From contig CBDBBI010000010.1 in NCBI GenBank assembly GCA_965202625.1, positions 2,592,001 to 2,656,000 of the forward strand: a DNA stretch of 64,000 bases, written 5' to 3'. A model generated the notes under the pieces. That model saw only the letters and a program-made list of their open reading frames with translations, ran no database searches and was not told the DNA's origin. A program made the translations under genes and the position numbers. Positions 1-30,272 of the stretch are shown here, piece after piece; within the stretch, counting starts at the first letter, position 1, and each line of letters begins with the position of its first letter. This DNA is from a bacterium. Lineage in GTDB: Bacteria > UBA8248.

Positions 1-303
1 CACTTCAGGGTGTCCCCACGCAGACCGGAGCGCGCGCGAAGAGGCCGTCCACGCCCAGAAGCGCGACCGTGTAATCGCGCAGGACACCCGCGTCTGGACG
101 ATGAGCGTATTGACGACCGCGCAGTTCGGCGCCATGCGCTTCTCGTGTCCTTTCTCCTTCAAAAACGTCATCTCGAGAAACAGGCTTTCCGTGTAGCCCA
201 TCAGGTTGGCGTAGCTCACCATGTCTGTCTCGGTGATGGTTCTGCCCCGGAGGACGAACTTGCTTCCGGCCTCCCACTTTTCAAACGCGACGCCCTCGTC
301 CAT
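1..303 (-). pseudogene. MaoC-family dehydratase, frameshifted, runs off window edge
   Basis: AGGAGG RBS then ATG at 303 reads MDEGVAFEKWEAGSKFVLRGRTITETDMVSYANLMG (MaoC RTITE-D motif). The continuation GVLRDYTVALLGVDGLFARAPVCVG is in another frame, and PVxVGDTL needs one more G. Confidence 0.6.
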
Positions 304-615
304 GAAACCTCCTGAATAATTGCGCAATTCCTTAGGAGGGCGATTCTATGGGCGCGTGGCGAAACCCCAAAGCGCGGTCGGGTTTTCGCGAGCCGAGAAA
401 ATGTGTGTTCAAGCCCTGCGGCGAGAGAAGTAAGCCATGCATTCTAGGGTAGACTGAGATTGTCTGCGCAAATCCCTCCATAATTCCGAATATAAAAAAA
501 AGATGGAATCCGGATTTTCCGGATGGTATGATTCAAGAAGATGTCCATGAAGATATGAGTGAAGCGCGATGGGGAGTTGAAAAGGATCAAGAAACGCAAA
601 CGGGGGGATGGACAA

Positions 616-21225: not shown

Positions 21226-24200
21226 ATGAGCGCGTACTCCTTTCATCCGTTGATAGCGCGCTGGTTCGGCGAGAAGTTCGGCGAGCCGAGCGCCCCGCAG
21301 GAGGCGGGCTGGCCGCAGATCGCGGCGGGGCGCGATGCGCTCATCACCGCGCCCACGGGAACGGGGAAGACGTTAGCCGCTTTTCTGTGGTCGCTCGACG
21401 ACCTCATTCAAAGGGCGCTCAGGGGCGCGCTTGCCGATGAGTGCCGCCTCATCTACGTTTCTCCCCTCAAGGCGCTCGGCAACGACATTCAGAGAAACTT
21501 GACGGCGCCCTTGAGCGAAATCCGTGCGCTCGCGCTACAGGGGGGCGTCAAACTGCCCGAGATCAGGGTGGCGGTTCGCTCGGGCGACACCTCGGCCCGT
21601 GAGCGTCGTCTCATGCTGAGGCGACGGCCCCATGTCCTTATCACCACGCCGGAGTCGCTTTACATCCTCTTGACGGCGGAGCGGAGCCGCGCGGTGCTCG
21701 AGACCGTGCGCGTCGTCATCGTCGATGAGATACACGCCGTCGCCGGAGATAAGCGGGGCGCGCATCTCGCTCTCTCTCTGGAGCGACTGGACGCGCTTTG
21801 TGGGCAGCGGCTTCAGCGCATTGGCTTGAGCGCCACGCAAAAGCCGATTGAGGAGGTCGCGCGCCTGCTCGTCGGCGCGGGAAGGAGCCGAGAGGACGGC
21901 GCCCCCGATTGCGCGATCGTGGATGTGGGGCATCTGCGGCGAATGGCGCTCTCCGTGGAGGTGCCTGATCAGGAAATCGGGCCCGTCGCCTCGCACGCGC
22001 TTTGGGGAGAGGTTTTCGACCGGCTCGCGGGCCACATCGAAGGACATCGGAGCACCATCGTGTTTGTTCACACGCGAAAGCTTGCCGAGCGCGTCGCCCA
22101 TCAGCTCACGGCGCGACTCGGAGAGGAGCGCGTCGCCGCCCATCACGGCTCCTTGTCCCGCAAAATCCGCCTCGACGCGGAGGAGAGGCTCAAATCAGGC
22201 GCGTTCTCCGCAATCGTCGCCACGGCGTCGCTCGAGCTGGGGATCGACATCGGCCACGTCGATCTTGTTTGCCATCTGGGCGCCCCGAGGACGCTCGCCT
22301 CCCTGTTGCAGCGCGTGGGCCGCTCTGGCCACTGGAAGGGCGCGACGCCCAAGGGAATCGTTTTTCCCCTGACGAGGGACGATCTTCTCCAGAGCGCGGC
22401 CGCGGTGCGCTCGGTGAGGGAGGGCGCCCTTGATCGCGTGATTTTCCCCGAAGCGCCGGTCGACGTCCTCGCCCAGCAGATCGTCGCCGAAGTCGCGGCG
22501 CGGGAAGAGGTGGAGGAGGAGGTGATCTGGGCACTCGTCAGGCGTGCGCAGCCCTACGCGCGGCTTGGGCGCTGCGTCTTCGAGGAAGTGCTAGAGATGC
22601 TCTCCGAGGGTGTCTCGACCAGTCGGGGCCGACGCGGCGTCCATCTGCACAGAGACCGCGTGAACGCCCTTTTGCGGCCGAGGCGCGGGGCGCGGCTCTG
22701 CGCCATCACCTCGGGCGGGGCGATTCCGGACACGGCGGACTACGATGTGATCGAGCACCCCGCGGAGACTTTCGTGGGCAAGGTGAACGAGGATTTTGCT
22801 GTAGAGTCGAACGCGGGCGACATCTTCTTGCTCGGCAATCATTCATGGCGGGTCAGGAGGGTGGAGCGCGACAAGGTGCGCGTGGAGGACGCGTGGGGGC
22901 TTCCGCCTAACATTCCTTTCTGGCTCGGGGAGGCGCCCGCACGCACGGCGGAACTCTCCGAGGCCGTCTCCCGCTTGCGGGCTACACTTGCGGAGCACCT
23001 GTGTGACGAGGATGGGGAGATTGGGTGGATGCGGGAGCAGTGCGGGTTGTGCGCCTCGGGCACGGCGCAGCTTCTTGCTTACGCGCGTGAGACGGCGCAG
23101 ATTTTGGGGCGCGTTCCCACGCAAGGCGAAATCGTGGCGGAGCGGTTTTTCGACGAGGCGGGCGGAATGCAGCTCGTGATTCACTCACCCTATGGCGGCC
23201 GCGTCAACCGGGCGTGGGCCCATACCCTCAGAAAGCGCTTTTGCCTCACGTTCGATTTCGAGCTTCAGGCCGCCGCGACCGACGACGGCATCGTGCTCTC
23301 GCTCTCCTCCCAGCACAGCTTTCCGCTGGAGTCGATTTTTGGTTTCACTCGCCTCGCCTCCTTGAGAAAGGACATGCTCCAGTCCGCCCTGCAATCGCCC
23401 ATGTTCGCTAACCGCTGGCGTTGGAACGCGACGCGCGCCCTCGCCCTGCCCCGATACGCTGGGGGGAAGAAGACACCGATCGCGCTTCAGAGGATGCGCG
23501 CGGAGGATTTGCTCGCGGCCGTTTTTCCGGCCCAGCTCGCCTGCCAGGACAACCACCATGGCCCAATCGAGCCTCCTGACCATCCCTTGGTGAACGAGAC
23601 GGTGGAGAATTGTCTGACCGAAGCGATGGACATCGACAATTTGAGAGAATTGATACGGGATATCGAAGGCGGAAGGGTGAAGACCTTCGCCGTGGAGACG
23701 CCTGCTCCCTCGCCCATGTCGCACGAGATACTGAACGCGAACCCCTACGCCTTCATCGACGATGCCCCGCTGGAGGAGCGCCGCTCGCGTGCCGTGCCGC
23801 TCAGGCGCGTCCTGCCCGAGAACGCGCAGAACGCTCAGCTGGACGCGGACGCCATTGAGGAGGTGCGCCGGGGAGCCTGGCCGGCTCCGAGAGACATGGA
23901 TGAGCTGCACGACGCCCTTCTCTCCTTGTGCGTGCTGCCTGATCAGGATGCGAGGGATTGGTTCGCCTGGGTGGGTGCGTTGCGTGCCCGGGGCCGCTTA
24001 GCCAGGGCGGTGTGGAGGGCGGGGGGCGCCATGTGCGAGGGATACGTTCCGGCTGAGCGGATGGCGTTTGTTCGTGCCGCGATTCCGGGCGTTGCGCTCA
24101 CGCCCGAGGAGATTCCCCTTCAGGTGGGAGAGACGAAAGCGGTTTCCAGGGAGACTGCGGCGCTCGTTCTCCTTCGGGGCTGGATGGAGTGCCTGGGGCC

Positions 24201-25557
24201 CGTGAGCGCGCAGGAGGTCGCCGCCCGCGTGGGGCTCGCATTGTCCGACGTCCATGTAGCCTTGGCCGCCCTTGAGGGAGAAGGCGCGGTTCTCAGAGGC
24301 CGCTTCGTGCGCCTCTCGCCCGATGCGCCAATTGAGTGGTGCGACCGCGCGCTGTTGAGCCGCATCCACCGGATGACGCTGGGAAAACTACGGCGCGAGA
24401 TCGAACCCGTCACGGCGGCGGACTTCATCCGGTATCTGCTCAGGTGGCAGCACCTGCATGAGGAGAGCCGGTTGCACGGGCGCGACGGCGTTCTGGAGGT
24501 GGTGCGCCAGCTCCAGGGCCTCGAACTACCCGCGCCCGCCTGGGAGGAGCGGATTCTCCCCGCCCGCATTCAGAATTACGACCCGGCTGACCTGGAGCAG
24601 CTGTGTCTCTCGGGTCTCGTCGTGTGGGGACGCCTGCGGCCGGGCGTCCCGCCCGATCCGCCTGAGCCTCCAACGGGCCGGATACGCCGCGCGACGTCCC
24701 AGAACGCGGGACCTACGCGCCGGGCGCTTCTGGCCTTTTTGCACAGAGAGGATATGGATATGTTCCTGAGTCCCCGGGGCGCGGGCGATGAATGGCGGCG
24801 AAATCTCTCGCGTCCGGCGCTTGAGGCGCTCGATTTTCTGGGCGCACGGGGAGCGTCTTTCCTTGCGGAGATCGCGCGGGCGACGGGCAGGCTGCGAACC
24901 GAGGTGGAGGAGGCGCTTTGGGAGCTCGTCTCGCGCGGTTTGGTGACAGGAGACGGCGTGGCGGGTCTCAGGGCGTTGATAATGAGCGAGAGGGAGAGGA
25001 AAAAGAGCGAACGAAGGCTCCGCGCTCTGCCGGGGGGCCGCGCCAAATCGCGCGAGGCGAAGAAGCGCTTCATGCCCGTGGGCCGCTGGTCACTCTGGGG
25101 GGTGGAGGACGTCCCCCTGGACGGTGAGGCCCGGCACGAAGCCCATGCGCGGCAGATGCTGAGAAGATACGGCGTCGTGATGCGCGAGCTCGCCGTCCGG
25201 GAATTCGCCGTTCCGCGTTGGCGCGAGCTCGTGGGAGTGTTTCGGCGTCTTGAGGCCAGGGGAGAGATTCGCGGCGGTCGCTTCGTCTCGGGCTTCACCG
25301 GCGAGCAGTTCGCCTTGCCGGAAGCCGTGGAGGCCCTGCGTGCCGTCCGCCGGATTCCGGCCCAAGGGAGGCCCACCATCGTTGACGCGAGCGACCCGAT
25401 GAATCTGTCGGGCATCATCACGCCGGGGCCCAAGGTTTCTATTCGTTCGCGCGACGTCATCCTCTATCGAGATGGTCTGGTGGCGGACTGCGGCCCGATC
25501 GGCGAGGTGCGAAGCCGCCTTGAGAACGAATCGCTCGGCTTGGGCCGAGGTGTATGA
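21226..25557 (+). CDS. lhr: Lhr-family large SF2 helicase with C-terminal domain
   Basis: APTGTGKT, SPLKAL, TTPESL, DEIH, SAT, HHGSLS, LELGIDIG, QRVGRSGH; full-length 1443 aa. Confidence 0.93.
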   Translation: MSAYSFHPLIARWFGEKFGEPSAPQEAGWPQIAAGRDALITAPTGTGKTLAAFLWSLDDLIQRALRGALADECRLIYVSPLKALGNDIQRNLTAPLSEIRALALQGGVKLPEIRVAVRSGDTSARERRLMLRRRPHVLITTPESLYILLTAERSRAVLETVRVVIVDEIHAVAGDKRGAHLALSLERLDALCGQRLQRIGLSATQKPIEEVARLLVGAGRSREDGAPDCAIVDVGHLRRMALSVEVPDQEIGPVASHALWGEVFDRLAGHIEGHRSTIVFVHTRKLAERVAHQLTARLGEERVAAHHGSLSRKIRLDAEERLKSGAFSAIVATASLELGIDIGHVDLVCHLGAPRTLASLLQRVGRSGHWKGATPKGIVFPLTRDDLLQSAAAVRSVREGALDRVIFPEAPVDVLAQQIVAEVAAREEVEEEVIWALVRRAQPYARLGRCVFEEVLEMLSEGVSTSRGRRGVHLHRDRVNALLRPRRGARLCAITSGGAIPDTADYDVIEHPAETFVGKVNEDFAVESNAGDIFLLGNHSWRVRRVERDKVRVEDAWGLPPNIPFWLGEAPARTAELSEAVSRLRATLAEHLCDEDGEIGWMREQCGLCASGTAQLLAYARETAQILGRVPTQGEIVAERFFDEAGGMQLVIHSPYGGRVNRAWAHTLRKRFCLTFDFELQAAATDDGIVLSLSSQHSFPLESIFGFTRLASLRKDMLQSALQSPMFANRWRWNATRALALPRYAGGKKTPIALQRMRAEDLLAAVFPAQLACQDNHHGPIEPPDHPLVNETVENCLTEAMDIDNLRELIRDIEGGRVKTFAVETPAPSPMSHEILNANPYAFIDDAPLEERRSRAVPLRRVLPENAQNAQLDADAIEEVRRGAWPAPRDMDELHDALLSLCVLPDQDARDWFAWVGALRARGRLARAVWRAGGAMCEGYVPAERMAFVRAAIPGVALTPEEIPLQVGETKAVSRETAALVLLRGWMECLGPVSAQEVAARVGLALSDVHVALAALEGEGAVLRGRFVRLSPDAPIEWCDRALLSRIHRMTLGKLRREIEPVTAADFIRYLLRWQHLHEESRLHGRDGVLEVVRQLQGLELPAPAWEERILPARIQNYDPADLEQLCLSGLVVWGRLRPGVPPDPPEPPTGRIRRATSQNAGPTRRALLAFLHREDMDMFLSPRGAGDEWRRNLSRPALEALDFLGARGASFLAEIARATGRLRTEVEEALWELVSRGLVTGDGVAGLRALIMSERERKKSERRLRALPGGRAKSREAKKRFMPVGRWSLWGVEDVPLDGEARHEAHARQMLRRYGVVMRELAVREFAVPRWRELVGVFRRLEARGEIRGGRFVSGFTGEQFALPEAVEALRAVRRIPAQGRPTIVDASDPMNLSGIITPGPKVSIRSRDVILYRDGLVADCGPIGEVRSRLENESLGLGRGV

Positions 25558-25886
25558 AATCCCTTGAAGCGCCTTGCGAGCACAGATTCAAGAATGCGCC
25601 GCCTGGCGCGCGAAGACGAATGGTTGCCTTCGCGCGGTCGGGCTTGCTGGGGGAGGAGCGCTCGGCGCCCCTGTGCTTGGCCGCCCCCTGCGAGCTCTCC
25701 GCGATTTGAAATAACTTACGGGTTTTGCCGGCGTCTCATCCTTGTCCGTTCACAAAGGGGCAGCCGAGGGGGAGAGGCGGAGACGTCGTGGGTCCGGAAC
25801 GCGAAATCCTGATCTTCAGGGGCACTCCACCTGAGCCGTTTTCGGGCGGGCGGCCTCCGTTTCCGAAAGACGAAAGAGAGGGGAAC

Positions 25887-26120
25887 ATGAGCGTATTCGT
25901 GGTCGGACACGTTGAGATCAAAAATGAGGAGGGATTCACCGACTACGCTGAGAAAGGGCTTGCGATCGTCCCCTCTTTCGGCGGCGAGTTCGTGATGTGT
26001 GGAGAGCTCACGAGGGTTCTGAGCGGCGCGCACGACAAGAGCACGTTCGCCATCCTGAAGTTCCCCGACCGCAACAAGGCGACGGACATCACGTTCCTAC
26101 CCTATGACGAGGCATTTTAG
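25887..26120 (+). CDS. DUF1330-family protein, apparently with an internal deletion
   Basis: MSVFVVGHVEIKNEEGFTDY..FGGEFV..ILKFP; only 77 aa, lacking the usual WYxSxEYQ helix. Confidence 0.6.
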   Translation: MSVFVVGHVEIKNEEGFTDYAEKGLAIVPSFGGEFVMCGELTRVLSGAHDKSTFAILKFPDRNKATDITFLPYDEAF

Positions 26121-26236
26121 GGGAGCAGCTGTTTCGTTGAAAAGCGTTCGTTGGGCACCCCCTTTGTGGAACAATCTGCTGACGTTTGCGACCCGGATGC
26201 GAGAATGCCAGACTATTTTGAAGGCGATTCGAGGCG

Positions 26237-27304
26237 ATGAACTCGCGTTTTATTCAGAGGACGCAAGTGGCTGACGCAGAGAGACGGAAATTTCCAGGTG
26301 GTTCTCGGCAGAGAGTTAATAAAGCCGGGCAGCAGGTTCGGAACAAGACTGCAGGAAATTCAGATTTTCAGGTTATTGATCACTGGCGTACTGCTCATTG
26401 GCGTGTGATAAATACATTCGGGTCTTTTCTTAGAATGCGGATAAGTCGCACAAGGCAAAGTGGAATCGTCGTGGCACAAAGACATAAACGTAAGCACACG
26501 ATTATCGATAAACTCAAACGATTTCCCAAGATGCAGTTAGCCCGCATGGATGATGTGGCGGGATGTCGTTTGATATTTGATAACATTCAGCAACTATACA
26601 AGTTTCGCAGTGACATTCACAAAGCAAAATTTAGGCACAAACTAAAGAATGAAATTGACAAATATGATTACATAAAGAGTCCCAAATTAAGTGGATATCG
26701 CGGAATTCACGATGTGTACGAGTACAATGTAAAGTCGCAAAACAGTCAAATTTCCAATGGGTTGTTGATTGAATTGCAGTATCGAACGCTTTCCCAACAT
26801 GCTTGGGCGACATGTGTTGAGTTGGTTGGTTTTTTGACTGATAACCAGCCGAAGTTTGAGCGGGGTGATGAGCGGTATCGGAATATTCTGCGCTTTTCAA
26901 GTGAAATCATTGCGCGCTCTGCCGAGAAGCGTTGTTCGAGCCTGAGGAATCTGGACGACAGAGAAGTAGTTAGGGGGTTTTTGGAACTTGATGACAAACT
27001 GAACTTTATGCAGATGTTGCGTGGTTTGAACACTGAGCAGGAATCGGATTCTCTCTATAAAAATATCATTTTGATTTTTCAAGAAATGGGAGATACCCCA
27101 CTTAAAATTCTCTCGTTTCGACATGCAACGGATGCATTGAAAAAGTTGTTCGAACTCGAAAATGAACCGTCCGGTAGGGATATTGTTTTGGTGAAAGGCG
27201 ATACCGCTGAAGGCATTCGTGAAGCATTCAAGAACTATTTTTCTGATGCGCGCAAATTCGTTGAGTTGATCAATCGTGGCTGTAGCGAACTTTCTGGGCA
27301 TTAA
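26237..27304 (+). CDS. RelA/SpoT synthetase-domain protein, fused CapRel-like toxin-antitoxin
   Basis: VAQRHKR..TIIDKL, RMDDVAGCR, SGYRGIH, IELQYRTLSQHAWA, and a C-terminal domain ending DIVLV..IREAFKNYFSDARKF. Confidence 0.82.
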   Translation: MNSRFIQRTQVADAERRKFPGGSRQRVNKAGQQVRNKTAGNSDFQVIDHWRTAHWRVINTFGSFLRMRISRTRQSGIVVAQRHKRKHTIIDKLKRFPKMQLARMDDVAGCRLIFDNIQQLYKFRSDIHKAKFRHKLKNEIDKYDYIKSPKLSGYRGIHDVYEYNVKSQNSQISNGLLIELQYRTLSQHAWATCVELVGFLTDNQPKFERGDERYRNILRFSSEIIARSAEKRCSSLRNLDDREVVRGFLELDDKLNFMQMLRGLNTEQESDSLYKNIILIFQEMGDTPLKILSFRHATDALKKLFELENEPSGRDIVLVKGDTAEGIREAFKNYFSDARKFVELINRGCSELSGH

Positions 27305-27399
27305 CGGTGTTGCTTCATGAGATCTGGAGATTTCGCCCTTAGGATTCCCATCAAGGATGTAACTCGATCTATTTCTTCGACGATTTTAGGACTTCACCC

Positions 27400-28005
27400 A
27401 TGCCTATCATCCGGCAGACGCCCGACGTTTCGAAATTCAACCCCGACATTGATTTGCCCTATCAACTTCGCCGGGAAGATTTTGCATTGGTCATGCAGGA
27501 CGTCTATGATTTCTTTTTCGACGTGAATACGCATCTGTTCAATAAAAGTCTCAAACGTCTGGATGAAATGCTGCGGCCCGCCGCGATGTCAGGGCTGGTC
27601 TCCGACATGGTTGCGGCGAGCATGGCGCAACATTCGCGAACCCTGGTCGAGAACCAGTACCACAACGGCCACCCGGACCTCATCGTGAACGGGATATACC
27701 CCAACGATGCAGTGAAGGCCGGAACAGAAGGCGTTGAAATCAAAAGCACTCGCAAATCAGGCGGAGCCGTCGATACGCATGGGGCGCGGAAGCAATGGAT
27801 GTGTGTTTTTGTTTATCAAGTTGATAACGAAACTGAACCCGCTGCAGATCGCGCCTCCATGAAATTCTCCGAAGTCTATCTCGGCTACGTCACTGTCAAT
27901 GATTTCCGTAGAAATGCGCGAAGCGAACTCGGAACGAGAACGGCTACCTTGAACAGAAGCGGCATTCAGAAGTTGCGGCGGAGTTGGGTATATCTGGACA
28001 CTTGA
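27400..28005 (+). CDS. Putative Type II restriction endonuclease
   Basis: GHPDL..GVEIKS (PD..ExK) motif; convergent with and overlapping an MTase. Confidence 0.6.
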   Translation: MPIIRQTPDVSKFNPDIDLPYQLRREDFALVMQDVYDFFFDVNTHLFNKSLKRLDEMLRPAAMSGLVSDMVAASMAQHSRTLVENQYHNGHPDLIVNGIYPNDAVKAGTEGVEIKSTRKSGGAVDTHGARKQWMCVFVYQVDNETEPAADRASMKFSEVYLGYVTVNDFRRNARSELGTRTATLNRSGIQKLRRSWVYLDT

Positions 28006-28900
28006 GCGCTTCTAGTTTTGGCATGGCCCGTTTCGCAAGTTGCACGTACCGTTTCGACACTTCGACGCCAACGCTTCGGTAGCCGATGTGATTGGCGGCG
28101 GCGAGCGTTGAGCCTGAACCCGCGAACGGATCGAGTATTACGCCCTTTTGGAGTGGAAGAGCCGCGCGGACCAGTTTCCGCAAAAACGACTGGGGTTTCA
28201 ACGATGGATGTGGCGCCAAACTCTTCTCCGTCGCCTTGGTCGTGTGCGACGGGATGACGTCACCGAACGGTTTGTCGTTCGATACGCGGCGAAGCCCGCC
28301 AGTTTCCCACTTGCGCAAATTGTCCTGAACGCGGCCGTCCAAGGGATTACGGAACAAAAGCCAGGGTTCGGCCATCGAGCGCGGCATCACCGTGACGTCG
28401 GAGAATTCTTTATGCGCGTTCTTCGGACGGTCGCCTCCCCGCATCGTCATGACGAGTCGGGTGATGACGCCCCGGTTTTCTAAACCGGCGGCGTCAAGTG
28501 CTGACGCGACGATATGAGAAACCAGGGGATTGGACGCCATGAATATATGAGCGCCGGGAACGAGGACGCGTGATACGCTACGACCGAAACGCCCGAAAAA
28601 TTCGCGCATGTTTTCGAGATCGGACGCGCTCAAAGTGGTGAAGCGTGGAAGCGGCGAACGCCGGTATCCGTCGAACGACGGAGGAATTCGCCAGACCCCA
28701 CCTCTGCCTTGACGAAGTTTGCGCTGCTCTTTTTCCGTGTATTCAACCAGGCCGTAAGGTGGGTCAGTCACAACCGCATGAATGGTGTTCTCTCGGCAAT
28801 TCTCCAACCACTCGAAACAGTCTGCCTGATACAAAACTGCTTCGCCGTGAATGCTCGCGGGCTTGGCAACTCTGCATGTTTTTTCTGGGACGACGGTCAT
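27944..28900 (-). CDS. Beta-class N4-C/N6-A DNA methyltransferase
   Basis: VVTDPPYG, HPSLKP, ILDPFAGSGST. Confidence 0.9.
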   Translation of the reverse strand: MTVVPEKTCRVAKPASIHGEAVLYQADCFEWLENCRENTIHAVVTDPPYGLVEYTEKEQRKLRQGRGGVWRIPPSFDGYRRSPLPRFTTLSASDLENMREFFGRFGRSVSRVLVPGAHIFMASNPLVSHIVASALDAAGLENRGVITRLVMTMRGGDRPKNAHKEFSDVTVMPRSMAEPWLLFRNPLDGRVQDNLRKWETGGLRRVSNDKPFGDVIPSHTTKATEKSLAPHPSLKPQSFLRKLVRAALPLQKGVILDPFAGSGSTLAAANHIGYRSVGVEVSKRYVQLAKRAMPKLEALKCPDIPNSAATSECRFCSR

Positions 28901-29495
28901 GCTTATTCCGTTTCGGGTTGAAAGTGGCGGCTATTGCTGATGCGCTTGAACTTATCGGAACATCGCCGCGAATGGGAACGGATGTAAAATCCAATAATAT
29001 CCGCTATCTTAATTTCCACTACCTCCTTATATCATCATCCTTTCATTCGGACAAGAAGCGGTCGTTTCCCGGACGGTTACGGTAGAGGTGCGTCTCCGGA
29101 AGGTGGGGAGAGTCCGCCTAACGCTAGAGTAAAATTTCAGGACGACGAGAGTCAGGGACATTCGGTCCCGCTATACTGCCGATTAGGGCGAACAATGGAC
29201 CTTTGCGTTTCCACTCTGAGTTGCGCGATGGACGTATTTAGGTCGATTTTCTTGGCGACTCTTACACTGAGAGGGTCCTTGAACGTGTTTCTACGCCTCG
29301 CCAAGGGGTTTCGCCTGGATGCGGAAACATTCTCTTCCACCGCCCTGACGCGAATGACGCAAACCACCTGAAGGTCGCGCGAGGCGGGCGTTTCGCCCGC
29401 CCCTTATGTTTACCCGTCCATCGGGAACGAGAGGACGTCGACGGCGTACTTCCGTCTGCCCCTCACCGAGAGGCGAAACGAATAGTTGCATTTGC

Positions 29496-30272
29496 TTATC
29501 TTCCCTGAAAATGGGCCGCTCTTTTTTCAAGGAACGCTGACGTTCCCTCGACTTTGTCCTCCGTGGTCATCAGGCAGGCCTGCCCCAGCCGCTCGGCGAT
29601 CATGCCCGCCTCCGGACCGAACTTGAGACCTGCGTTGATGGCGATTTTCGCCATGCGCACCGCCAGCGGCCCTTTGCGCATCATCTTTCGGGCACACTCG
29701 CGCGCGGCGTCCAATAGCCGCCTCCCCGAAACGACTTGGTTGACCAGACCGATGCGGTGGGCTTCATGCGCATCAATGACCTCTCCCGTCAGGATTAACT
29801 CCTTCGCTCTTCCGACGCCCACGAGGGCGGCGAGCCGCTGTGTGCCGCCCGCCCCCGGCATTATGCCGAGGTTCACCTCGGGCTGCCCGAACCTGGCGTT
29901 TTCACACGCTATGCGGATGTCGCAAGCCATAGCGAGCTCGCAACCTCCGCCGAGGGCGAAGCCGTTGACAGCGGCAATGATCGGCTTCTCCACGATCTCC
30001 AGCCGCGTTAGCGTCCGCTGAGAGGGAGCGGCGAGCCCGTCGATGAGATTTCGCTCCTTCATTTGGGCGATATCAGAGCCTGCAGCGAAGCATTTCTCCC
30101 CGGCGCCCGTGAAGATGACGACGTGAACCTCGCCGTCTGATTCGAGCGCCTCTACAACGGCACCGACCTCCCGCCACGTCTGGGGGTCGAGTGCATTTTT
30201 TTTCTCAGGGCGGTTGATGGTGATGAGCGCGATTCCCTCTGAGCGCTCGACCAATAAGTTCTCGTATGGCAT
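29496..30272 (-). CDS. Enoyl-CoA hydratase/isomerase (crotonase family)
   Basis: INRPEKKNAL, AAVNGFALGGGCELAMACDIR, GQPEVNLGIMPGAGGTQRL. Confidence 0.93.
   Translation of the reverse strand: MPYENLLVERSEGIALITINRPEKKNALDPQTWREVGAVVEALESDGEVHVVIFTGAGEKCFAAGSDIAQMKERNLIDGLAAPSQRTLTRLEIVEKPIIAAVNGFALGGGCELAMACDIRIACENARFGQPEVNLGIMPGAGGTQRLAALVGVGRAKELILTGEVIDAHEAHRIGLVNQVVSGRRLLDAARECARKMMRKGPLAVRMAKIAINAGLKFGPEAGMIAERLGQACLMTTEDKVEGTSAFLEKRAAHFQGR

Follow-up and report, generated by a model that had tools for sequence, protein, structure and literature searches.

A probable fused CapRel-family toxin-antitoxin gene in a variable chromosomal hotspot of a UBA8248 bacterium

The DNA analysed here (the window) is a stretch of 64,000 nucleotides from contig CBDBBI010000010.1 (assembly GCA_965202625.1) of a bacterium of the GTDB lineage UBA8248. 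It contains an insertion of low GC content in which an open reading frame (ORF) of 355 codons is accompanied by the two genes of a restriction-modification (R-M) pair (Table 1). We conclude with good confidence that the 355-aa ORF encodes a fused toxin-antitoxin in a single polypeptide, which belongs to the CapRel branch of the toxic small alarmone synthetases (toxSAS). The reference throughout is CapRel-SJ46 of Salmonella phage SJ46 (structures 7ZTB and 9ERV), hereafter SJ46, the only structurally characterised CapRel.

Table 1. The CapRel-like gene, its parts and the surrounding features, in window positions
Feature	Position	Strand	Basis
Fused CapRel-family toxSAS toxin-antitoxin gene (probable)	26237..27304	+	ORF list, ATG start, 355 aa plus stop
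N-terminal basic helical extension, aa 20-75	26294..26461	+	Model helices 24-35, 41-72
toxSYNTH catalytic core, aa 76-200	26462..26836	+	Pfam; R82, R111, G-loop Y154, H158, E179, Q181, R183
Anchor-1 helices, toxin-sensor linker, aa 201-263	26837..27025	+	Model helices 212-229, 241-255, 257-262; high entropy
Pseudo-zinc-finger-like sensor/antitoxin core (predicted), aa 264-322	27026..27202	+	Model strands 276-281, 289-294, 315-320; helix 297-309
Putative [Y/F]xxY neutralisation motif, F331-K-N-Y334	27227..27238	+	Aligned to SJ46 Y352-P-N-Y355
Putative type II restriction endonuclease, 201 aa, PD-(D/E)xK-like	27400..28005	+	Invariant columns, predicted fold
DNA methyltransferase N6_N4_Mtase	27944..28900	-	Pfam PF01555 1.1e-19; PADLOC MTase_II 5.6e-108
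3.4-kb low-GC insertion (hotspot cargo) between DUF1330 gene and enoyl-CoA hydratase-like gene	26112..29502	.	Genome comparison, GC

A Pfam scan of the protein returned RelA_SpoT (PF04607) alone (residues 81-192, E 6.5e-14, 52.6 bits against a cut-off of 27), with no HD or other hydrolase family at E <= 0.01. The protein therefore has no hydrolase domain, in agreement with the initial annotation of this DNA, which had described a complete small alarmone synthetase (SAS) domain, no hydrolase domain and a further domain at the C-terminus. The family is indicated by matches that extend over nearly the whole chain. PADLOC model PDC-S33 covers residues 20-349 (9.5e-98, 325.8 bits), and the same model is the single one in PADLOC that SJ46 (KU760857) matches, over its full length (7e-87, 290.1 bits). 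Both proteins thus fall into one family model, the window protein with the higher score. We take PDC-S33 to be a single-gene 'phage defence candidate'; the model carries no description and we found no paper using the name. When the protein was compared with PDB sequences by phmmer, SJ46 was matched at E 4.5e-25 by query residues 23-347 and plain SAS proteins (RelQ/RelP) at about 1e-8. A profile alignment of 108 relatives of the window protein (A1) matched 7ZTB at 5e-80 (272.6 bits, profile positions 5-336), whereas the best plain SAS reached 83.5 bits over the core only. The highest match in NCBIfam was the YjbM small-alarmone-synthetase equivalog NF053588, which at 50.1 bits missed its cut-off of 320. 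Direct identity to SJ46 is low, 26% over 361 BLASTP columns (E 4e-30). The C-terminus of the 355-aa ORF contains GIREAFKNYFSDARKFVELINRGCSELSGH. The string IREAFKNYFSDARKF, which the initial annotation had put at the very end of the protein, is indeed present near the C-terminus but 15 residues remain after it.

The order of parts is that of SJ46: an N-terminal extension, the toxSYNTH core, anchor-1, a beta-beta-alpha-beta domain and anchor-2. Within the extension R51 is invariant in A1, and W50 and H54 are conserved to at least 90%; most of this region is absent from plain SAS structures, whose alignments start at model residues 38-45. Residue conservation was counted in 99 full-length representatives (320-420 aa) aligned with the window protein and SJ46, which were taken from 150 listed representatives, the other 51 being left out as fragments or longer forms. 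Each of the core residues named in Table 1 is kept in 98-99 of the 99. R82 (R79 of SJ46) is arginine in all of them, R111 (R116) is arginine in 98, and the G-loop tyrosine Y154 (Y155) is likewise found in 98; in SJ46 the substitution Y155A is reported to abolish defence (Zhang et al. 2022, PMC9712102). Moreover, all 14 columns that are invariant in the family, plus the scaffold residues, are kept in the window protein. The same paper reports that SJ46 becomes constitutively toxic with Y352A, Y355A, A77K, R116A, V338A, L339A, A341K or A351K. Of the mutation-sensitive positions of SJ46 the window protein differs at two, having phenylalanine for Y352 and lysine for A341, and the equivalents of R79, R116, Y155, A77, V338, L339, A351, N354 and Y355 are conserved. 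Among the representatives V317 (V338) is valine in 90/99, L318 (L339) leucine in 74/99 and A330 (A351) alanine in 74/99, while the position of K320 (A341) holds serine in 32, arginine in 27, lysine in 12 and alanine in 8.

Where SJ46 has YxxY the window protein has FxxY, A330-F331-K332-N333-Y334-F335 lying opposite A351-Y352-P353-N354-Y355-F356 in the alignments, as the initial annotation had pointed out. It had gone on to call this a variant autoinhibitory motif, and that statement holds only in part: the phenylalanine is real but it is not unusual. Position 331 is tyrosine in 64 representatives, phenylalanine in 31, a gap in 3 and alanine in 1. In the close clade, defined as the full-length sequences (119) among the best 120 protein matches and including the window protein, phenylalanine is found in 119/119. 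A Fitch count on a 101-tip FastTree tree gave at least 18 interchanges between phenylalanine and tyrosine at this position. The asparagine (N333, equivalent to N354) and the second aromatic residue (Y334, equivalent to Y355) are each present in 94 of the 99 representatives. In other words the family consensus is A-[Y/F]-x-N-Y-F, and FxxY is a regular family state. That the 'YXXY' motif is really [Y/F]-x-N-Y-F family-wide is useful for motif-based definitions. In ATfaRel2 both YXXY tyrosines are reported to pi-stack on donor-site arginines; Y51A, which removes the first tyrosine, causes a modest defect and Y54A, which removes the second, abolishes neutralisation (PMC11782079). By analogy, phenylalanine at the first motif position can preserve aromatic stacking. 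A compensating change in the pocket was considered for the F/Y state and set aside. The highest mutual information with that state was 0.36 bits and was spread over surface positions, a signal that we read as phylogenetic.

A structural model of the window protein built with AlphaFold 2 on A1 had a mean predicted local distance difference test score (pLDDT) of 92.0 and a predicted template modelling (TM) score of 0.89. Beyond the synthetase core it consists of helices, a beta-beta-alpha-beta unit and then three further helices (324-330, 332-335 and 339-352); a beta-beta-alpha-beta unit with flanking anchors is the published description of the CapRel pseudo-zinc-finger domain (PMC9712102). The top Foldseek match was 7ztb_B (E 3.9e-19, 349 columns, TM 0.66, root-mean-square deviation (rmsd) 10.3 A), the remaining matches extending over about 220-230 columns. 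VIA-align superposed 7ztb_B with Z 24.5 and an rmsd of 3.2 A over 277 aligned residues (model 19..351) and 9erv_A with Z 23.5, whereas the best plain SAS, 5ded_C, gave Z 15.8 over model residues 44..232 only. The full-length rmsd is large although the local fit is good, which suggests that the model and the open crystal form differ at a hinge. A comparison with SJ46 by hidden Markov model (HMM) and by structure, which the initial annotation had proposed, thus showed PDC-S33 to be common to both proteins and the structural match to run across both domains.

Autoinhibition was approached by complex prediction. The protein was split at 263/264 and the halves were docked, alongside controls, in three runs. 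The interface score ipSAE was 0.83 (runs 0.82-0.83) and that of the best control 0.00; the ipSAE mark applied is reached by 116/157 solved complexes and by 2/215 mismatched pairs. The runs agreed in at least 93% of contacts, with a partner pLDDT of at least 73. In the confident interface, residues 78-83, 111 and 113 of the toxin face residues 315-322 and 329-333 (A-F-K-N) of the C-terminal part, the toxin side being formed by the strands that bear A80, R82 and R111. The anchor-2 helix is predicted to pack on residues 185-199 and 221-262, anchor-1 included. This predicted docking is the closed geometry that was proposed for SJ46 and is seen in FaRel2:ATfaRel2. In the latter complex (8PU3) a strand of the pseudo-zinc-finger domain (pZFD) is described as extending the toxin beta-sheet at beta1, and the YXXY 3-10 turn as stacking on two donor-site arginines (PMC11782079). 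The contacts predicted in the window protein are of the same kind. However, FaRel2 and ATfaRel2 are separate proteins that form a heterotetramer, whereas the window protein is one chain, and the fold match between them is weak (8pu3_C Z 7.0).

The C-terminal half is related to that of SJ46 in a restricted sense. Set against the C-terminal fragment of SJ46, A1 columns 232-355 scored 52.9 bits (equivalent to E 3.3e-13 in a search the size of the PDB), compared with at most 9.5 bits over 1000 shuffles of that fragment, and columns 264-355 scored 42.9 bits. The sensor core of the window protein is about 19 residues shorter, window residues 270-290 lying opposite SJ46 270-309, and resembles that of SJ46 in predicted topology only. 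The sensor core is acidic, with an isoelectric point (pI) of about 5.1-5.2, and so is the C-terminal domain as a whole (pI 5.1, net charge -4), in contrast to the basic one of SJ46 (pI 9.9, net +9). The N-terminal domain is strongly basic (pI 10.3, net +20). Across the family the pI of the C-terminal domain ranges from 4.35 to 10.25, and that of the N-terminal domain exceeds 9 in 94 of 98 representatives. As in SJ46, variability is greatest in the middle of the chain and its C-terminal part: column entropy peaks at residues 226-315 (2.9-3.1 bits) and drops at 316-345 (1.9-2.3), and members of the close clade are on average 69% identical to the window protein in toxSYNTH but 49% in the sensor core. 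A conserved toxin joined to a diversifying sensor is the pattern published for CapRel (PMC9712102). Since no sequence relationship to the SJ46 sensor core could be detected, and the core is shorter and acidic, another protein or another surface probably serves as the trigger; a phage trigger of its own, as the initial annotation had suggested, is thus a plausible reading of the sequence. One could go further and suppose that the large, mostly environmental clade in which phenylalanine is fixed, with its short acidic sensor, would recognise a phage protein other than the HK97-type capsid or Gp54-like protein of SJ46, and that, with the tyrosine hydroxyl gone, the closed state would be tuned towards easier opening. 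We consider this fuller proposal speculative and rather doubtful.

Relatives of the window protein are numerous. Among 3838 word-sharing candidates 2329 matched at E <= 0.001, and an exhaustive search of 50%-identity representatives gave 3707 matches at <= 0.001, 2292 at <= 1e-10 and 467 at <= 1e-30. On IMG/VR contigs (phage or prophage) relatives were encoded in 252 of 361 candidate stretches. Fifteen named genome loci, found by a single-protein search that reached close relatives only, came from alpha- and gammaproteobacteria, Phycisphaerales and Thermodesulfobacteriota. In eight genome loci compared no neighbouring gene was conserved, save between two near-identical Thermodesulfobacteriota genomes, which fits a single-gene system without a separate gene for a cognate antitoxin. 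The identification as a fused CapRel-like toxin-antitoxin, already made in the initial annotation, accordingly draws on the shared HMM, the full-length profile and fold, the conserved residues, the missing partner gene and the predicted docking. A metagenomic protein of 1173 aa (P0241) contains a CapRel-like module at 8-337 that is 56% identical to the window protein, followed by TIR (355-458) and AAA/STAND-NTPase matches; either two defence modules are truly fused in it, or separate genes were merged in gene calling.

By analogy with its relatives, the protein is most likely an abortive-infection sensor-effector that would block translation by pyrophosphorylating tRNA when a phage protein is engaged. 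In the resting state the C-terminal domain is predicted to fold back onto the toxin domain. Its last strand (315-322) would lie paired with beta1 of the toxin (78-83), and the turn formed by A-F-K-N-Y would be placed between R82 and R111, thereby blocking the site of ATP, the pyrophosphate donor. Upon infection, to judge by homology, a newly made phage protein would bind the variable sensor domain and keep it off the active site; the freed enzyme would pyrophosphorylate the 3' CCA ends of tRNAs, translation would halt and the infection would abort. The full-length relatives that have been characterised, 7ZTB/9ERV only, are tRNA pyrophosphokinases. In tRNA-targeting toxSAS, pZFD-type elements are reported to neutralise the toxin by way of its donor site, whereas in (pp)pApp producers Tis1-like domains occlude the acceptor site (Nat Chem Biol 2024, PMC11782079). 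Contacts with the donor site in the docking prediction, the basic N-terminal domain and the conserved N-terminal extension with R51 may be taken to favour tRNA targeting in the window protein too.

The CapRel gene is horizontally acquired cargo of a variable chromosomal hotspot, unlike the gene of SJ46, which is located on a P1-like prophage. The island was defined against 20 related genomes and by local blastn. The flanks have a GC content of 0.63-0.69, compared with 0.39-0.46 over the CapRel gene and 0.50-0.60 over the two genes that follow it. At the island neither a tRNA gene nor a boundary of integrase type was detected; the window's five tRNAs are at 60-62 kb. The interval between the DUF1330 and hydratase genes is a cargo hotspot in the genus (loci L003, L004, L005, L007, L008 and L108), and its content differs from genome to genome. 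In G007 it is empty, about 100 nt separating the same flanks. G001 has the R-M pair at 81% nucleotide identity and 132 nt instead of window positions 26126-27397. G008 has an ORF of metallo-beta-lactamase (MBL) fold and the R-M pair, G004 the MBL-fold ORF only, and G011 a RidA-like ORF and the R-M pair, inverted. G031 (L108) carries a CapRel homologue together with an MBL-fold gene and an ORF that is GIY-YIG-like; nothing in the 4-kb locus matches the R-M pair at the DNA level. In the window the CapRel-like gene and the R-M pair occur together. The initial annotation had correctly placed the gene directly upstream of an R-M pair. Because the two come and go independently, however, their adjacency reflects a shared hotspot and not a coupled system. 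A single hotspot found empty, with R-M only, with CapRel only and with both illustrates how small defence genes are assembled piecemeal side by side.

A survey of 42 genomes of the taxonomic family at the protein level detected the CapRel gene in 3, namely the window's own genome and 2 of 22 other congeners; none of 19 genomes of eight other genera had it. The copy in G031 is intact, lies in the same hotspot, is 72% identical in protein sequence and also has AFKNYF. At the DNA level the window gene and this orthologue (L108 1486-2589) are 75% identical and both have a GC content of about 0.41-0.45 in genomes of about 0.6, so their low GC content has persisted through substantial divergence. 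Two observations concern the left flank. The DUF1330 gene at 25887-26120 (+) encodes 77 aa compared with 97-99 aa in congeners, about 20 internal residues being gone in frame, and its product may therefore be impaired. Further upstream, a Lhr-type helicase of 1443 aa (21226-25557, +; DEAD, DEAD_assoc and Lhr winged-helix) matches PADLOC DpdJ with E = 0 (1353 bits) and is probably a housekeeping Lhr.

Several observations weigh against reading the ORF as a working CapRel defence gene. Toxicity, autoinhibition, tRNA targeting and phage defence are attributed to it by homology and prediction. The profile of the sensor core (264-322) matched SJ46 at noise level (7.7 bits, shuffle maximum 8.0). As the wider columns do score, what homology can be detected in this half comes from the last strand and from the anchor-2/[Y/F]xxY segment. 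As a single sequence, residues 232-355 (124 aa) did not retrieve 7ZTB from the PDB at E <= 10, the search returning designed proteins only, at E about 0.007. Lysine occupies position 320, where A341K makes SJ46 constitutively toxic; arginine or lysine is, however, present there in 39 of the 99 representatives, so that the effect of A341K seems specific to the SJ46 context. In the docking, Y334 is outside the list of confident contacts, and since both docked partners come from a single protein whose relatives have been solved, the favourable score may reflect likeness to, or memory of, the solved CapRel and FaRel2:ATfaRel2. A PADLOC match (E <= 1e-5) was found for 5 of 35 neighbouring proteins, at 4 of 8 loci, which makes the defence-island context weak for the family at large. 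In a scan of 25800-29600 no sigma-70-like promoter was found upstream of the CapRel gene on the + strand; the scan yielded 5 promoter-like sites where 2.3 +/- 1.5 were expected. Finally, the copy in G009 (L109, G009:C4:62267-63319, -), which is 66% identical and lies outside the hotspot, has one internal TAG and may be a pseudogene, so the gene can decay.

This last finding, together with the missing promoter-like site and the small number of defence genes around relatives, could be accounted for if the CapRel-family gene no longer defended its host and either stabilised the island as a selfish module of the addiction type or persisted as an unexpressed, decaying remnant. Such a state is in our view improbable for the window gene, whose frame is intact and of full length and whose invariant columns and scaffold residues are all kept; the intact G031 orthologue, at its degree of divergence, argues for purifying selection. 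A toxSAS directed at metabolism would have the same fused, autoinhibited architecture and would act through a toxic alarmone, for example (pp)pApp, or through depletion of ATP, with no modification of tRNA. Y154 and the donor-site arginines, being common to all SAS types, would suit such an enzyme equally, and the weaker fold matches include structures of FaRel and Tas1 type (6ox6 Z 9.5; 8pu1 Z 6.3). We regard this as unlikely all the same, given that the sole full-length relatives of known activity act on tRNA, that the predicted contacts lie on the donor-site strands, a mode that has been tied to tRNA targeting (PMC11782079), and that the N-terminal domain is as strongly basic as in nearly all representatives.

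The labels attached to the family point in yet another direction. Relatives are called 'putative GTP pyrophosphokinase' in the source databases and the top NCBIfam match is the YjbM model, as would be expected of an ordinary, RelQ/RelP-like SAS that serves stress signalling by making (p)ppGpp and has a C-terminal part acting as a regulatory appendage and not as an antitoxin. The two groups do have a common catalytic core (RelQ/RelP, that is YjbM/YwaC, Z 15-16 over 44-232). But the YjbM score lies far below its cut-off, plain SAS structures match residues 44-232 only, the C-terminal antitoxin half being entirely absent from them and the N-terminal extension largely so, and the family HMM is the one matched by SJ46. 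Furthermore, the genome already holds a separate long RelA/SpoT homologue (a 785-aa open frame), and the gene is patchy in distribution, low in GC and inserted relative to congeners. An ordinary SAS is thus very unlikely. We give still less credence to the idea that the protein is the effector of a PANGU-type two-gene system, in which a partner such as a nucleoid-associated protein (NAP) activates the toxSAS. Effectors of this sort, toxSAS with a C-terminal partner-binding domain, do exist; in PANGU type I (Pag1B/GRel), as described, the defence effector is a toxSAS that carries a regulatory domain at its C-terminus, the system is bicistronic with a NAP activator, the isolated toxSYNTH is inactive and (pp)pGpp is made (preprint 10.64898/2026.04.06.716658). 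The window gene instead lies between a gene for a DUF1330 protein and one whose endonuclease-fold product is paired with a methyltransferase, the comparison of eight loci showed no conserved neighbour (as judged without a PANGU partner model), and the C-terminal domain is CapRel-like, with a [Y/F]xxY tail, and is predicted to dock on its own toxin domain.

We therefore return to the fused CapRel-family toxin-antitoxin. The protein is a genuine but ordinary member of this family; existing defence-annotation models already detect such genes, this one included, and no new mechanism is revealed. What it adds is a confidently assigned divergent CapRel in a non-enterobacterial genome of about 60% GC. 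In the passages of the CapRel and toxSAS literature consulted, we found no discussion of the clade to which it belongs.

The R-M neighbours are convergent and overlap by 62 nt. Both are present together in G001, G008 and G011, with 81-82% nucleotide identity. The methyltransferase is identified by its Pfam and PADLOC matches (Table 1). For the 201-aa ORF no Pfam family was found, the match to PADLOC REase_II was weak (5.8e-4), and no meaningful match emerged among PDB sequences, the best being a subtilisin at E 0.83. Its invariant columns, however, are P92-D93...E113-x-K115, and its AlphaFold 2 model (pLDDT 83.4) has a restriction-endonuclease-like fold. Foldseek returned nothing at E <= 0.001, the weak matches being mostly type II endonucleases. 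In a structure search of 48,161 chains the nine best were all restriction endonucleases, led by NaeI (Z 9.7, rmsd 3.8 A, 144 residues aligned), the remaining eight having Z 7.0-5.2. With moderate confidence, the 201-aa ORF is a probable type II endonuclease. At least 7985 of 8000 candidates scored were homologues of it. The best 120 were 70-87% identical, and the few names given were all 'hypothetical protein'. The 201-aa protein thus looks like a member of a widespread, unannotated family of type II restriction enzymes that has no Pfam model.

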